Assembly (NCBI GenBank): GCA_964016885.1 | Contig: OZ024749.1 | Span: 38,874,001 to 38,938,000 of the forward strand | Direction: 5' to 3' | Length of the DNA: 64,000 nt | From: Eledone cirrhosa | Taxonomy: Eukaryota | Part shown: positions 13,048 through 63,960 of the stretch, piece by piece | How the letters are laid out: each line of letters opens with the position of its first letter | Position numbering within the stretch: position 1 is the first letter of the stretch | Notes under the pieces: generated by a model | Told to the model about the DNA's origin: nothing | Databases searched by the model: none | Seen by the model: only the letters and a program-made list of their open reading frames with translations | Program-made: the position numbers and the translations under genes

Positions 13048-13440
13048 AATCATCATTTCGTTTCATTTTACGTCCCCTTTTCCCTGCTTGCAAGGGTGGG
13101 GCGGGAACTGATTCTGGCTTGATTTCTACAGCTGGATGCCCTTCCTAACACCAACCTCATTTACAGTGAGTGCTGGGTGCTTTTTTTCCGTGGCGCCTAC
13201 ACGTCCACTTTACAGCGAGTGATGGGTGCTTTTTTGCCGTGGCACCTCCACGACTACTTTGCAGTGGAATGATAGGGACCCCCAAGTCCCTATCATCTCA
13301 TTTCTACAGCTGAGTAAACTGGAGCAATGTGAAATAAAGTGTCTTGCTCAAGGAAACAACACATCACCCGGTCTGAGAATTGAACTCACAACCTTTCGAT
13401 TGCAAGGCCAATGCTTTAACCACTAAGCCATGTGCCTCCA
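13048..13440 (-). mobile_element. tRNA-derived composite SINE (family 2)
   Basis: tRNA head (TGGCTTAGTGG, GAGTTCAATTC), CORE-like CCTTGAGCAAGACACTT, GGAAGGGCATCCAGC block, LINE-like tail. Confidence 0.8.
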
Positions 13441-20960: not shown

Positions 20961-21878
20961 GTAAGTTCTCATTTTCCCATCATCCTTCCCCTCTTTCCTC
21001 TCACTCTTTCTCACCTATATCTCATCTCTCTCTGCCTACTCTCTCTCATTTCTCTCTCTCTTTCCACTCTCATCTCTCTCTGTCCACTCTCTCATCTCTC
21101 TCTCTCTCTCTCCCCTCTCTCTCCCCCACTCTCTTTCATCTCTGTCTGTCTGATAAAGATATATTAAAGGTGTACCTCTACAGGTAGGGAATTATTAAAG
21201 ATGTACCTCTACAGGTAGGAAGTTATTAAAGGTATATTTCATTTACCATCCCTATCTCTCCAACCCTTATAATTAATCCCTCCAGCTCTGGTGTCACACT
21301 AACAGACTTATTAGAGTACCAGATTAAATATTTTTCAATATTTATTCCTGCTCTCAGCTCAAATTAGCCCTTTATCCATTCAAGGGCCAATAAAGTAAAG
21401 TACCTGTCCAAAGTGCTGTGGGTTGGCTGAATTGTTAGAATATCAGATGAGATATTTTGAGGTGCGTTTTGTTCTGGTTCTTTATGTTCTGAGAAGTTAA
21501 ACAGCATAAAAATGGTATGGGGCTACAGTGAGAGGGACTATGCCCCTAAGAGAAAATATGTTGTCTTTATTGATTTTAATTTCTCATTGTATTTTCTGAT
21601 GAAGGACTAGCGCCCAAAACGTTAAGACTCTTTTTCTAGTATTTCAAGCACAAAGCTAAAAATATATTTCTTCATTGTACTGTGTTGTTTGTTTGTTATT
21701 TCTGTTTGCCTTTTGTATGTATATATATATATATATACACACACACATGCATGTATGTACAAGTAGTTTCTATTGTTACCAACGTCCCATGGTGTATTGG
21801 GATTAAATATTAGAAGATTATTATAGAATCAGTCATAAAAAATTAAATTTTTCAACTTACTCTGTTGAAAGTTCAGTT

Positions 21879-22412: not shown

Positions 22413-22800
22413 TGAAGGTGCATGGCTTAGTGGTTAGAGCATTGGCCTTGCAATCGAAAGGTTGTTAGTTCAATGCTCGGACCGGGTGAGGTGTTGTTTC
22501 CTTGAGCAAGACACTTTATTTCACATTGCTCCAGTTTACTCAACTGTAGAAATGAGATGATAGGGACTGGGGTCCCTATCATTCCACTGTAAAGTGGATG
22601 TGGAGGTGCCACGGAAAAAAAGCACCCAGCACTCACTGTAAATGAGGTTGGTATTAGGAAGGGCATCCAGCTGTAGAAATCAAACCAGAATCAGTTCCTG
22701 TATGAGCAAGGCATGGTCAGCTGACTGGACACTGCCCACAACAGGACAACCCGCCTAACCCATGCTAGCGTGGAAGAACGGACGTAAAACGGTGATGATA
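22413..22800 (+). mobile_element. tRNA-derived composite SINE (family 2, full length)
   Basis: Head TGGCTTAGTGGTTAGAGC; tail CCATGCTAGCGTGGAAGAACGGACGTAAAACGGTGATG; partial copies at 30905-31180, 33628-33900, 56290-56490. Confidence 0.85.
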
Positions 22801-22953
22801 GGTAGGATGGGTTAGTTTGAGACAATGTTTTATAGCCAGATATATATATATATATATATATAGAAGTGGCTTCTACAGGTCTATAACTGTTTCATTCGAA
22901 AGAAATTATCATGATGATTTCTTTCAAATAATATATAGTCATGGGATATGTTA

Positions 22954-25900
22954 TGAAATATATACATATACACCAGGTCTGAACACAAAGGAACCAAACT
23001 CCAGTTGCCCCTGCCTCCATCTCTCCCACTCTCCTCATCTCTCACTATTGTGCTAGTGTGTATCTGTGAAATATATACATATACACCAGGTCTGAACACA
23101 AAGGAACCAAACTCCAGTTGCCTCTGCCTCCATCTCTCCCACTCTCCTCATCTCTCACTATGGTGCTAGTGTGTATCTGTGAAATATATACATATACACC
23201 AGGTCTGAACACAAAGGAACCAAACTCCAGTTGCCCCTGCCTCCATCTCTCCCACTCTCCTCATCTCTCACTATTGTGCTAGTGTGTATCTGTGAAATAT
23301 ATACATATACACCAGGTCTGAACACAAAGGAACCAAACTCCAGTTGCCTCTGCCTCCATCTCTCCCACTCTCCTCATCTCTCACTATGGTGCTAGTGTGT
23401 ATCTGTGAAATATATACATATACACCAGGTCTGAACACAAAGGAACCAAACTCCAGTTGCCCCTGCCTCCATCTCTCCCACTCTCCTCATCTCTCACTAT
23501 GGTGCTAGTGTGTATCTGTGAAATATATACATATACACCAGGTCTGAACACAAAGGAACCAAACTCCAGTTGCCCCTGCCTCCATCTCTCCCACTCTCCT
23601 CATCTCTCACTATGGTGCTAGTGTGTATCTGTGAAATATATACATATACACCAGGTCTGAACACAAAGGAACCAAACTCCAGTTGCCCCTGCCTCCATCT
23701 CTCCCACTCTCCTCATCTCTCACTATGGTGCTAGTGTGTATCTGTGAAATATATACATATACACCAGGTCTGAACACAAAGGAACCAAACTCCAGTTGCC
23801 CCTGCCTCCATCTCTCCCACTCTCCTCATCTCTCACTATGGTGCTAGTGTGTATCTGTGAAATATATACATATACACCAGGTCTGAACACAAAGGAACCA
23901 AACTCCAGTTGCCCCTGCCTCCATCTCTCCCACTCTCCTCATCTCTCACTATGGTGCTAGTGTGTATCTGTGAAATATATACATATACACCAGGTCTGAA
24001 CACAAAGGAACCAAACTCCAGTTGCCCCTGCCTCCATCTCTCCCACTCTCCTCATCTCTCACTATGGTGCTAGTGTGTATCTGTGAAATATATACATATA
24101 CACCAGGTCTGAACACAAAGGAACCAAACTCCAGTTGCCCCTGCCTCCATCTCTCCCACTCTCCTCATCTCTCACTATTGTGCTAGTGTGTATCTGTGAA
24201 ATATATACATATACACCAGGTCTGAACACAAAGGAACCAAACTCCAGTTGCCCCTGCCTCCATCTCTCCCACTCTCCTCATCTCTCACTATGGTGCTAGT
24301 GTGTATCTGTGAAATATATACATATACACCAGGTCTGAACACAAAGGAACCAAACTCCAGTTGCCTCTGCCTCCATCTCTCCCACTCTCCTCATCTCTCA
24401 CTATGGTGCTAGTGTGTATCTGTGAAATATATACATATACACCAGGTCTGAACACAAAGGAACCAAACTCCAGTTGCCCCTGCCTCCATCTCTCCCACTC
24501 TCCTCATCTCTCACTATGGTGCTAGTGTGTATCTGTGAAATATATACATATACACCAGGTCTGAACACAAAGGAACCAAACTCCAGTTGCCTCTGCCTCC
24601 ATCTCTCCCACTCTCCTCATCTCTCACTATGGTGCTAGTGTGTATCTGTGAAATATATACATATACACCAGGTCTGAACACAAAGGAACCAAACTCCAGT
24701 TGCCCCTGCCTCCATCTCTCCCACTCTCCTCATCTCTCACTATGGTGCTAGTGTGTATCTGTGAAATATATACATATACACCAGGTCTGAACACAAAGGA
24801 ACCAAACTCCAGTTGCCTCTGCCTCCATCTCTCCCACTCTCCTCATCTCTCACTATGGTGCTAGTGTGTATCTGTGAAATATATACATATACACCAGGTC
24901 TGAACACAAAGGAACCAAACTCCAGTTGCCCCTGCCTCCATCTCTCCCACTCTCCTCATCTCTCACTATGGTGCTAGTGTGTATCTGTGAAATATATACA
25001 TATACACCAGGTCTGAACACAAAGGAACCAAACTCCAGTTGCCTCTGCCTCCATCTCTCCCACTCTCCTCATCTCTCACTATGGTGCTAGTGTGTATCTG
25101 TGAAATATATACATATACACCAGGTCTGAACACAAAGGAACCAAACTCCAGTTGCCCCTGCCTCCATCTCTCCCACTCTCCTCATCTCTCACTATGGTGC
25201 TAGTGTGTATCTGTGAAATATATACATATACACCAGGTCTGAACACAAAGGAACCAAACTCCAGTTGCCTCTGCCTCCATCTCTCCCACTCTCCTCATCT
25301 CTCACTATGGTGCTAGTGTGTATCTGTGAAATATATACATATACACCAGGTCTGAACACAAAGGAACCAAACTCCAGTTGCCCCTGCCTCCATCTCTCCC
25401 ACTCTCCTCATCTCTCACTATTGTGCTAGTGTGTATCTGTGAAATATATACATATACACCAGGTCTGAACACAAAGGAACCAAACTCCAGTTGCCCCTGC
25501 CTCCATCTCTCCCACTCTCCTCATCTCTCACTATGGTGCTAGTGTGTATCTGTGAAATATATACATATACACCAGGTCTGAACACAAAGGAACCAAACTC
25601 CAGTTGCCTCTGCCTCCATCTCTCCCACTCTCCTCATCTCTCACTATGGTGCTAGTGTGTATCTGTGAAATATATACATATACACCAGGTCTGAACACAA
25701 AGGAACCAAACTCCAGTTGCCTCTGCCTCCATCTCTCCCACTCTCCTCATCTCTCACTATGGTGCTAGTGTGTATCTGTGAAATATATACATATACACCA
25801 GGTCTGAACACAAAGGAACCAAACTCCAGTTGCCTCTGCCTCCATCTCTCCCACTCTCCTCATCTCTCACTATGGTGCTAGTGTGTATCTGTGAAATATA

Positions 25901-28329
25901 TACATATACACCAGGTCTGAACACAAAGGAACCAAACTCCAGTTGCCCCTGCCTCCATCTCTCCCACTCTCCTCATCTCTCACTATGGTGCTAGTGTGTA
26001 TCTGTGAAATATATACATATACACCAGGTCTGAACACAAAGGAACCAAACTCCAGTTGCCCCTGCCTCCATCTCTCCCACTCTCCTCATCTCTCACTATG
26101 GTGCTAGTGTGTATCTGTGAAATATATACATATACACCAGGTCTGAACACAAAGGAACCAAACTCCAGTTGCCTCTGCCTCCATCTCTCCCACTCTCCTC
26201 ATCTCTCACTATGGTGCTAGTGTGTATCTGTGAAATATATACATATACACCAGGTCTGAACACAAAGGAACCAAACTCCAGTTGCCCCTGCCTCCATCTC
26301 TCCCACTCTCCTCATCTCTCACTATGGTGCTAGTGTGTATCTGTGAAATATATACATATACACCAGGTCTGAACACAAAGGAACCAAACTCCAGTTGCCC
26401 CTGCCTCCATCTCTCCCACTCTCCTCATCTCTCACTATTGTGCTAGTGTGTATCTGTGAAATATATACATATACACCAGGTCTGAACACAAAGGAACCAA
26501 ACTCCAGTTGCCCCTGCCTCCATCTCTCCCACTCTCCTCATCTCTCACTATGGTGCTAGTGTGTATCTGTGAAATATATACATATACACCAGGTCTGAAC
26601 ACAAAGGAACCAAACTCCAGTTGCCCCTGCCTCCATCTCTCCCACTCTCCTCATCTCTCACTATTGTGCTAGTGTGTATCTGTGAAATATATACATATAC
26701 ACCAGGTCTGAACACAAAGGAACCAAACTCCAGTTGCCCCTGCCTCCATCTCTCCCACTCTCCTCATCTCTCACTATGGTGCTAGTGTGTATCTGTGAAA
26801 TATATACATATACACCAGGTCTGAACACAAAGGAACCAAACTCCAGTTGCCCCTGCCTCCATCTCTCCCACTCTCCTCATCTCTCACTATTGTGCTAGTG
26901 TGTATCTGTGAAATATATACATATACACCAGGTCTGAACACAAAGGAACCAAACTCCAGTTGCCGCTGCCTCCATCTCTCCCACTCTCCTCATCTCTCAC
27001 TATGGTGCTAGTGTGTATCTGTGAAATATATACATATACACCAGGTCCGAACACAAAGGAACCAAACTCCAGTTGCCTCTGCCTCCATCTCTCCCACTCT
27101 CCTCATCTCTCACTATGGTGCTAGTGTGTATCTGTGAAATATATACATATACACCAGGTCTGAACACAAAGGAACCAAACTCCAGTTGCCCCTGCCTCCA
27201 TCTCTCCCACTCTCCTCATCTCTCACTATGGTGCTAGTGTGTATCTGTGAAATATATACATATACACCAGGTCTGAACACAAAGGAACCAAACTCCAGTT
27301 GCCCCTGCCTCCATCTCTCCCACTCTCCTCATCTCTCACTATGGTGCTAGTGTGTATCTGTGAAATATATACATATACACCAGGTCTGAACACAAAGGAA
27401 CCAAACTCCAGTTGCCCCTGCCTCCATCTCTCCCACTCTCCTCATCTCTCACTATGGTGCTAGTGTGTATCTGTGAAATATATACATATACACCAGGTCC
27501 GAACACAAAGGAACCAAACTCCAGTTGCCTCTGCCTCCATCTCTCCCACTCTCCTCATCTCTCACTATGGTGCTAGTGTGTATCTGTGAAATATATACAT
27601 ATACACCAGGTCTGAACACAAAGGAACCAAACTCCAGTTGCCCCTGCCTCCATCTCTCCCACTCTCCTCATCTCTCACTATGGTGCTAGTGTGTATCTGT
27701 GAAATATATACATATACACCAGGTCTGAACACAAAGGAACCAAACTCCAGTTGCCCCTGCCTCCATCTCTCCCACTCTCCTCATCTCTCACTATGGTGCT
27801 AGTGTGTATCTGTGAAATATATACATATACACCAGGTCCGAACACAAAGGAACCAAACTCCAGTTGCCCCTGCCTCCATCTCTCCCACTCTCCTCATCTC
27901 TCACTATGGTGCTAGTGTGTATCTGTGAAATATATACATATACACCAGGTCCGAACACAAAGGAACCAAACTCCAGTTGCCCCTGCCTCCATCTCTCCCA
28001 CTCTCCTCATCTCTCACTATGGTGCTAGTGTGTATCTGTGAAATATATACATATACACCAGGTCCGAACACAAAGGAACCAAACTCCAGTTGCCCCTGCC
28101 TCCATCTCTCCCACTCTCCTCATCTCTCACTATGGTGCTAGTGTGTATCTGTGAAATATATACATATACACCAGGTCCGAACACAAAGGAACCAAACTCC
28201 AGTTGCCTCTGCCTCCATCTCTCCCACTCTCCTCATCTCTCACTATGGTGCTAGTGTGTATCTGTGAAATATATACATATACACCAGGTCCGAACACAAA
28301 GGAACCAAACTCCCACTGTCGCTGCCTCA
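22954..28329. repeat. 113-bp tandem satellite, about 47.5 copies, in POMGNT1 intron 2
   Basis: CACCAGGTC recurs from 22971 to 28282 (exactly 47 x 113 bp); near-identical units. Confidence 0.97.
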
Positions 28330-28481
28330 ATTGACATGTTATGATATTCGGACATGTTATGATATTATATTTTCATGGGATACATTATGATATATATTCA
28401 TGGGATATGTTAAAATTGATATTATATTTTATATTTGTGCCATGTTGTTGTTTAAGCTGACTATGTTCTGTTTTGTTGCAG

Positions 28482-30695: not shown

Positions 30696-30886
30696 GGAAC
30701 CAGTAAGACCCTGACGGCTGAGCTCAAGCCGTTTCGACGGCTAATTCAGTCCAGAATTAGCCGTCGAAACGGCTTGAGCTCAGCCGTCGGGGTCTTACTG
30801 GTTCCTATTACCCACTCTACTACCCCAAGTATTGAGTACTTTGGTGCGTTATGGTCCACCTGGTTCCTTACCACATTTCCTTTGTT
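30692..30886. mobile_element. (TA)n-embedded foldback element
   Basis: About 54-bp arms around the loop AGTCCA, then a unique tail ending TTTGTTATATA. Confidence 0.7.
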
Positions 30887-31355
30887 ATATATATATATAT
30901 AATCTCATCATCACCATCACCATTTTACGTCCATTCTTCCACTCTAGCATGGGTTAGACAGGTTGTCCTGTCGTGGGCAATGCCCAGTCGGCTGACCTTG
31001 TCTTGCTCATACAGGAACTGATTCTGGCTTGATTTCTACAGCTGGATGCCCTTCCTAACACCAACCTCATATACAGTGAGTGTTGGGTGCTTTTTTGCCG
31101 TGGCGCCTACACACCCACTTTACAGTGTGGGCTGGATGCTTTTTTTGCCGTGGCACCTCCACGACCACTTTGCAATGGGAGGGGGTGGGGGAATATTGTC
31201 TATATGCTTCAGCTTATAGGAAAAGAGTCAGGTCAGGCCCCCAACGGCTGAGCTCCGGCCATTTCGACAGCTAGATCCAAACTGTATTGAGTACTCTGGT
31301 GCGTTATGGTCCACCTGTTTTCTTACCACACTTTCTTTGTTATATATATATATAT

Positions 31356-31656
31356 ATAATATATAAGATCAAAAGATGGTTAAAAGAGTTCCATGTATTT
31401 TATTATGCGCATTTCAAAAACAAATATCATCATGCAATAACATTTGCGTTTTCGTCAGATAAAATAGGGAGACATGATATGAAGGTTAAAACACACTTGT
31501 GAATAGGGCAGTTTTAAATCAACATATAAAATACATGGAACTCTTTTAACCATCTTTTGATCTTATATATTATTTATACTCCAGTCCTACAAACTGTAGA
31601 GTGCTTCTTATCCGATATCTGCATTGCTTTATTGTACTACAATAAAACTCACCTCC

Positions 31657-31660
<4 letters not shown>
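31356..31660. mobile_element. Hammerhead-bearing foldback element (family B), Penelope pseudo-LTR-like
   Basis: 48-bp arms 31356-31403 and 31526-31573; homologous to 63365-63904. Confidence 0.7.
31396..31466 (-). ncRNA. Type I hammerhead ribozyme motif (family B)
   Basis: UAUUUUAU-CUGACGA-[36-nt stem-loop II]-GAA-AUGCGCAU-A-AUAAAAUA; 8-bp stem I, palindromic stem III, AUA cleavage triplet. Confidence 0.8.
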
Positions 31661-31705
<45 letters not shown>

Positions 31706-31759
31706 GTGAGGTTTTTTTACAAAATGAAAAATAACCGAGGTGTCCTACACGAGTGAAAG

Positions 31760-31943
31760 TATAAAGAAAAAGAGATGAAATCGAAAATGCAACTGGAGTC
31801 TTATTAGAAAAACCACAGACCCTCCATCTCAACTCACCTTTTGAAAAGCAGAAGAACTGCGAAACCGGTAAAGGAACCAAATAAATATATATATTTTTTA
31901 AAAAAATAAGACTCCAGTTGCATTTTCGATTTCATCTCTTTTT

Positions 31944-31950
<7 letters not shown>
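31760..31950. repeat. 46-bp inverted repeat enclosing a hammerhead motif
   Basis: Arms 31760-31805 and 31905-31950. Confidence 0.9.
31837..31874 (+). ncRNA. Minimal hammerhead motif with U3-A8 core variant
   Basis: CCUU-UUGAAAA-GCAG aagaa CUGC-GAA-A CCGG U-A-AAGG. Confidence 0.65.
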
Positions 31951-31974
<24 letters not shown>

Positions 31975-63287: not shown

Positions 63288-63365
<78 letters not shown>

Positions 63366-63491
63366 GTAGGAGGTGAGTTTTATTGTAGTACAATAAAGCA
63401 ATGCAGATATCGGATAAGAAGCACTCTACAGTTTGTAGGACTGGAGTATACATAATATAAGATCAAAAGATGGTTAAAGGAGTTCCATGTA

Positions 63492-63558
63492 TTTTATTAT
63501 GCGCATTTCAAAAACAAACATCATCATGCAATAATATTTGTGTTTTCATCAGATAAAA
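63492..63558 (-). ncRNA. Type I hammerhead ribozyme motif (family B)
   Basis: UUUUAU-CUGAUGA-[stem II]-GAA-AUGCGCAU-A-AUAAAA. Confidence 0.8.
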
Positions 63559-63797
63559 CAGGAGAACATGATATGAAGGCTAAAAAACACTTGTGGATAG
63601 TGCAGTTTTAAATCAACATATCAATAATCGTTTCGACCCCTGCTTATTAATTTTTCAGATTTGTTCGAATCCCCCCATCCCCACTTATTAATTTTGACTA
63701 TTCTATGTCCGGTAAGATTTCATTTCAAGTGATAATATGTTGATTTAAAACTGCACTATCCACAAGTGTTTTTTAGCCTTCATATCATGTTCTCCTG

Positions 63798-63864
63798 TTT
63801 TATCTGATGAAAACACAAATATTATTGCATGATGATGTTTGTTTTTGAAAAGCGCATAATAAAA
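63798..63864 (+). ncRNA. Type I hammerhead ribozyme motif (family B, inverted copy)
   Basis: Same motif as 63492-63558 with one T>A change in the stem III palindrome (63851). Confidence 0.75.
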
Positions 63865-63896
63865 TACATGGAACTCCTTTAACCATCTTTTGATCT

Positions 63897-63960
<64 letters not shown>

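Follow-up and report, generated by a model that had tools for sequence, protein, structure and literature searches.

Does an insertion that starts exactly at the predicted cleavage site of its own ribozyme record the 5′ end of a ribozyme-cut RNA? The question is raised by a locus in the 64,000-nucleotide stretch of Eledone cirrhosa DNA that we analysed (hereafter the window), where an inverted, head-to-head pair of pseudo-LTRs (pLTRs) of a Penelope-like element (PLE) lies within a (TA)n repeat. With element positions numbered so that +1 is the first base 3′ of the predicted hammerhead cut, sequence and alignment place one arm at 31356..31527 on the − strand; it has no tail and runs from −123, the dominant 5′ end of the family, to about +48, the point at which partner arms end in 41 of 46 pairs. 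The second arm, on the + strand, is 5′-truncated: its pLTR portion (31526..31573), complementary to the first arm, is the 3′ part of the pLTR from +1 and opens at 31526 with ATAAAATAC. A ‘tail’ of ~87 nt follows (31574..31660, +), which in the intact element runs on into the 5′ UTR and ORF; here the arm closes at 31660 and (TA)n resumes. The target microsatellite is present in the sequence to the left (31341..31355) and to the right (31661..31700), with no readable target-site duplication. The initial annotation was right that the + arm begins at the predicted post-cut sequence and runs to the element end before (TA)n, and had concluded that the retrotransposed RNA owed its 5′ end to the ribozyme. 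At the head-to-head junction, sequence and alignment overlap show that the arms have a 2-nt AT in common (31526..31527), so the real break could lie anywhere from +1 to +3, and this microhomology explains the junction.

The hammerhead is a type-I motif at 31396..31466 of the − strand, located by sequence and structure fit. Its stem I 5′ arm starts at 31466, the core CUGACGA lies at 31458-31452 and GAAA at 31415, and the AUA triplet puts the predicted cut between 31404 and 31403, with stem I ending at 31396; core, stems and triplet all lie as first described. Stem I has 8 bp; stem II has 15 bp, interrupted by a 1x1 internal loop. Helix III is palindromic, with only 2 bp as a monomer and a predicted 8-bp helix of −10.5 kcal/mol as a dimer. 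Dimeric cleavage of PLE hammerheads is reportedly treated in one paper. The CUGANGA core, GAAA, NUH and three helices are all present in the family motif, and the G10.1-C11.1 pair of canonical and PLE hammerheads is absent, being A-U in 17 of 18 haplotypes and G-U in the other. None of the hammerhead copies was detected by an Rfam scan of the window at gathering score, and shuffle z-scores of the isolated motif are weak (−0.15 to −1.1). Fold prediction gives stem I a probability of 0.6-0.7 in native context and of 0 in − strand read-through at the locus, where the two arms pair as a long duplex. Since read-through would leave no stem I, the copy at this locus is likely to cleave only if transcribed from its own start.

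A paralogous inverted pair, identified by sequence comparison, lies at 63365..63909 and consists of a tailed full arm (−, 63621-63365), a 113-nt filler and a tail-less full arm (+, 63735-63909). The − strand hammerheads of the two loci (31466-31396 and the copy at 63.5 kb) differ at five places in the 75-nt motif, namely N7 (C/U) and four A/G changes opposite U, and the claim that these differences preserve the structure is borne out for all five; the chance of keeping a pair is 0.58 per transition, so four such changes alone are weak evidence. In the third copy in the window (63794-63868, +), one change disrupts a helix III pair. At 97% identity, the filler (63622-63734) copies DNA ~200 nt past the insertion (contig 38938096-38938211), which makes it a local, templated insertion between the arms. 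A tandem array of ~48 near-identical units, also of 113 nt, occupies 22841-28331; filler and satellite unit are equal in length and unrelated in sequence.

Beyond the window, the family is abundant: the 3.0 Gb genome holds 8,933 exact matches to 24 nt of the tail, and in a position-ordered sample of 100 of these, 46 of 62 short copies have an inverted partner. An intact copy (locus L250) has a 798-aa ORF (4164-1771, −) in which motifs of a reverse transcriptase (RT) and then of a GIY-YIG nuclease were located, and the ORF is flanked on both sides by the same pLTR and tail, as a direct partial tandem. The ORF starts ~215 nt downstream of the cut, and the 3′ UTR is ~1 kb. Pfam searches of two ORFs, this one among them, gave no family match; its atlas neighbours carry GIY-YIG and RVT_1 families, which we take as a lead. 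A four-Cys motif at aa 657-671 resembles the published Neptune/Nematis linker (PMC8557442), and the inverted truncated copy, one-sided tail and (TA)n targets belong to the anatomy published for EN+ PLEs (PMC8557442). By its ORF, pLTR arrangement and tail, the family is an EN+ Penelope-like retrotransposon. A non-LTR retrozyme, which is described as head-to-tail tandem hammerhead units without an ORF (10.64898/2026.07.22.740005), is ruled out by the dispersed head-to-head pairs and the autonomous ORF. A second PLE-type ORF at another locus (L131, 3328-4962) meets an inverted pLTR piece of the family via a short shared stretch; being 43% identical to the L250 ORF and joined to that piece, it was rejected as the ORF of the family, and the join is possibly a template switch between families. 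Upstream of the tandem element in L250 (5653-7425, −) there are helicase reading frames that are putatively Helitron-like by their motifs.

The window contains other repeats as well. The (TA)n array also houses, at 31701-31960, a different inverted element, tailed on one side only and with a tail end close to that of the family; an element of this type also adjoins the family at a second locus (L020), and it is probably a second PLE family. On the other side, a third element has its inverted arms at 30697-30890 and 31225-31340; these hold GAAA, a helix that pairs and GUC, much as the 3′ half of a hammerhead would if its helix III were long, and lack the 5′ core. Five more CUGANGA cores, at 21596 (+), 36416 (−), 15246 (−), 62028 (+) and 62149 (−), are likely to be hammerheads of other PLE families; three are of one related short type and two face each other. 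A tRNA-like match at the Rfam threshold (13373-13430, −), in a repeat also present near 22413-22572, is probably the head of a tRNA-derived SINE.

Across the family, the hammerhead is conserved. Among 231 full pLTR copies, taken from mixed samples in which arms from one insertion are not independent, 204 retain the whole core and have no more than one pair broken. Common variants (in at least five copies) occur at eight of 50 stem positions, and all eight keep pairing; they occur at none of ten core positions, at N7, at three of four loop II positions and at 22 of 96 positions outside the motif. Pairing is kept by 8 of the 51 rare stem variants. For eight out of eight to keep it by chance, the probability is 5e-5 under the outside mutation spectrum and 0.013 if only transitions are considered. 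Nine pairs vary, each on one side only, and 99.1% of cells are paired. Covariation, which had been proposed as a check, did not appear, with none of the 25 pairs showing a double compensatory change among 18 haplotypes; with no pair changed on both sides, this is conservation rather than covariation. Such a pattern of variants indicates that the hammerhead fold is under purifying selection in the family.

A ribozyme-made 5′ end predicts a peak of truncations at the cut, and none was found. In a position-ordered sample, the first 100 of the 8,933 tail matches, no tailed arm starts at +1 and 84 span the cut: 38 continue into the element body, 29 start at −124..−119, 15 at −118..−17, one at −13 and one at −1, with three more at +2..+6 and 13 beyond +10. 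Their inverted partners behave alike, 31 of 46 starting at −124..−119. Two samples look closer at the cut. For starts within about −27..+22, 100 of 1,647 matches were listed, 99 of them distinct; after 22 with internal indels were set aside, nine of the remaining 77 start at −13, 17 in −16..−11 and two at +1, and truncations among these listed matches are denser just downstream of the cut (15 in +1..+8) than upstream (five in −7..0). For starts within −2..+11, 200 of 360 matches were listed and 34 with indels or duplications set aside; +1 accounts for 14 of the other 166, against 15.7 expected under a uniform null, with 30 at +6 and 28 at +10.

Mismatch-filtered searches cannot test junctions of the kind in the window, where +1 meets a full-length partner: C stands in that partner at the places filtered on. 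This class was therefore counted separately. Among 100 junctions listed of 103, 20 are at +1, 18 at +6, ten at −3/−2, one at 0, 14 at +2..+5, ten at +8, ten at +8 or +10, eight at +9, six at +10 and three at +11, so that +8 and +10 together hold 26. The 20 at +1 include the copy in the window and one probable duplicate, and in three of the 100 listed a complete partner end abuts +1 exactly, as a blunt join. A wider version of the class (100 listed of 242) has 11 at +1 and 36 at −16..−11. In one further mismatch-filtered search (100 listed of 150, 19 deletions set aside), the apparent starts among the 81 remaining matches are 26 at +1, 13 at 0, 12 at −1 and 30 at −2 or earlier. The tallies of the −2..+11 sample, the separately counted class, its wider version and the further search were read off the printed matches by eye; when 60 of the 200 and 30 of the 100 were checked by script, the only disagreements were three mutated rows, of which two had been counted as +1. 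A sample may contain both arms of one pair and probably holds a few duplicates. The frequent start sites are those with AT-type microhomology to the partner's end, as at the window junction, and in the separately counted class +1 is no commoner than its neighbouring AT sites. Family-wide, 5′ truncations cluster at −16..−11, the 3′ foot of stem II, which reflects either RT pausing at the folded hairpin or a microhomology effect of the U-run. Because family copies mostly span the cut and begin 123 bases upstream, the +1 start of the copy in the window is likely a chance join.

The dominant end at −123 carries a signature of its own. All 42 copies that continue into the body have C as the template base preceding −123, yet the base that precedes a −123 start genome-wide is G in 2,557 cases and A in 783, and junction flanks in general are 42% A and 13% G. 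At free ends in the position-ordered sample, G is found in 11 of 26 against this 13% background (P 1.7e-4), and in 22 of 57 over all loci unbiased by the first query, loci L001-L030 being left out because the query that found them had G there; seven of the 22 G-preceded free ends are short duplications of the start, so the G has a second possible source. Complete 5′ junctions of L1 elements can carry one extra G that derives from the mRNA cap (PMC11702581), and transcription of Drosophila Penelope is described as starting within the pLTR (PMC2377424; PMC6765202). As a non-templated G at the −123 end is the expected mark of a capped start, we infer a capped transcription start at −123, upstream of the hammerhead. 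The literature searched, mostly papers free of subscription, yielded no report of a cap-like G or of tail asymmetry for any PLE.

Tail asymmetry is nearly absolute: among head-to-head pairs in loci not chosen by tail, 131 of 132 have one tailed and one tail-less arm, a pattern consistent with one fixed priming site on the RNA for each target strand. The Anolis PLE in vitro is reported to extend both target strands, to start reverse transcription internally at two sites bounding the tail, and to insert equally well with a dead hammerhead (PMC11167929). We consider it probable that the locus arose from two reverse transcriptions of capped, hammerhead-uncut RNA, joined head to head. The anatomy of the family, the distributions of its ends, the asymmetry of tails and the added G were observed directly, and the following steps are drawn from them. 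Transcription would start at −123, upstream of the hammerhead, and the element's RT/GIY-YIG protein would open both strands of a TA repeat. Priming would occur at +133, where the tail ends, on one strand and at the AU-rich pLTR end (~+46 to +51) on the other. Synthesis of each cDNA would proceed toward the 5′ end of the RNA, where the cap would often be copied as one more G, or would halt early, often at the foot of stem II, and the two cDNA 3′ ends would be joined via 1-4 nt of microhomology. At this locus, one cDNA would have been completed and the other stopped or trimmed at the AT of +1. In tandem transcripts the hammerhead would probably cleave as a dimer or aided by protein, and so act on the transcript pool and not set the template 5′ end.

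What survives of the original proposal is a fold kept by selection; the end of this copy does not carry the case for cleavage in vivo. Some hammerhead-cut transcripts might still be copied to their new 5′ end, with the window copy among them, as a minor route. Its junction fits the cut exactly and the fold is under selection, +1 has twice the count of the upstream AT site at −3/−2 in the 100 junctions listed of 103 (20 vs 10) and includes the three blunt joins, the 100 listed of 150 have 26 at +1 against 13 at 0 and 12 at −1, and density among the matches listed is higher just downstream of the cut (15 vs 5). Yet that step could equally come from stalling at the unwinding of stem I or from poor joining at the GC-rich palindrome; +6 (18) and +8/+10 (26) are as common as +1 in the 100 listed of 103, other junction classes have 14 where 15.7 are expected among the matches listed, and a genuine RNA end gives a sharp pile-up like that at −123. 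We estimate that a surplus, if there is one, involves no more than a few tenths of a percent of arms, and regard such a route as improbable.

That the hammerhead is kept as a fold, for protein binding, as a promoter or as an RT pause, with little or no cleavage in vivo, is doubtful but deserves weight. The 10.1-11.1 pair is A-U or G-U and not G-C, the monomer helix III has 2 bp, metazoan PLE hammerheads are described as cleaving poorly in vitro (PMC4209133), and the Anolis cut site is reported to show no RNA-seq ends (PMC11167929); against this, the lack of common variants at all ten core positions while N7 varies fits selection on catalysis, and the 8-nt palindrome would form the dimer helix of −10.5 kcal/mol. 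If the pair arose differently, because one cDNA folded back or primed itself or because the template was antisense, the +1 start would again be incidental. Self-priming on an antisense template has been proposed for the head-to-head pairs of rotifer PLEs (PMC3846280), the first 6 nt of the pLTR here are a palindrome, and junctions are perfectly palindromic in 27 of the 166 arms that reach −123. We think it unlikely nonetheless, as both arms often have their own extra G or filler, the truncated arm can be either one, and the 131/132 tail asymmetry better fits two fixed RT start sites.

Two reverse transcriptions of uncut RNA remain our preferred reading. The role of the PLE hammerhead and the origin of inverted insertions have been posed as open questions (PMC8557442), and with ~9,000 tailed copies both become testable from junctions alone. 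The junction counts lend genomic support to the in vitro picture of an uncut template, two RT starts and priming of both strands, and, as useful by-products, they bring out a cap-like G, a strict asymmetry of tails and a cluster of stops where stem II has its foot. If the minor route were true, the +1 surplus and the density step would be a genomic footprint of metazoan Penelope hammerhead cleavage in vivo, running beside the main capped, uncut route.

Among known systems, EN+ PLEs of the Neptune/Nematis type are closest, as described in PMC8557442: they have the same single ORF with RT followed by a C-terminal GIY-YIG, partial-tandem pLTRs with the hammerhead in the pLTR, and an inverted 5′-truncated copy with a tail at one end in (TA)n targets. 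Their tail is usually 30-40 nt (PMC8557442), and here it is ~87 nt; the 3′ UTR is ~1 kb here, and the likeness is one of anatomy, not of placement in a tree. According to PMC11167929, Poseidon of Anolis carolinensis (PAc) likewise has two internal RT start sites bounding the tail and an uncut RNA as its main template, with no ends at the hammerhead cut; its ORF starts inside the hammerhead, unlike the ~215 nt downstream of the cut found here, and the evidence is biochemical there and comes from genomic junction statistics here. The minimal hammerheads of metazoan PLEs are likewise type I with a long helix II and a short palindromic helix III for dimers (PMC4209133); the motif here differs from that account in its longer helix I (8 bp) and helix II (15 bp), in A-U or G-U at 10.1-11.1 and in its AUA triplet (PMC4209133). 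In contrast to R2 elements, the copies here do not begin at the cut, the dominant end being 123 nt upstream. The HDV-like ribozyme of R2 has a role in 5′ processing. R2 elements with such ribozymes likewise have a conserved self-cleaving motif near the retroelement 5′ end (PMC6765202). L1 twin priming likewise gives inverted insertions from a second reverse transcription on the other target strand, with microhomology joins and an extra G at complete 5′ ends (PMC11702581), but here the two cDNAs overlap almost fully, begin at two fixed starts and have no poly(A) tail.
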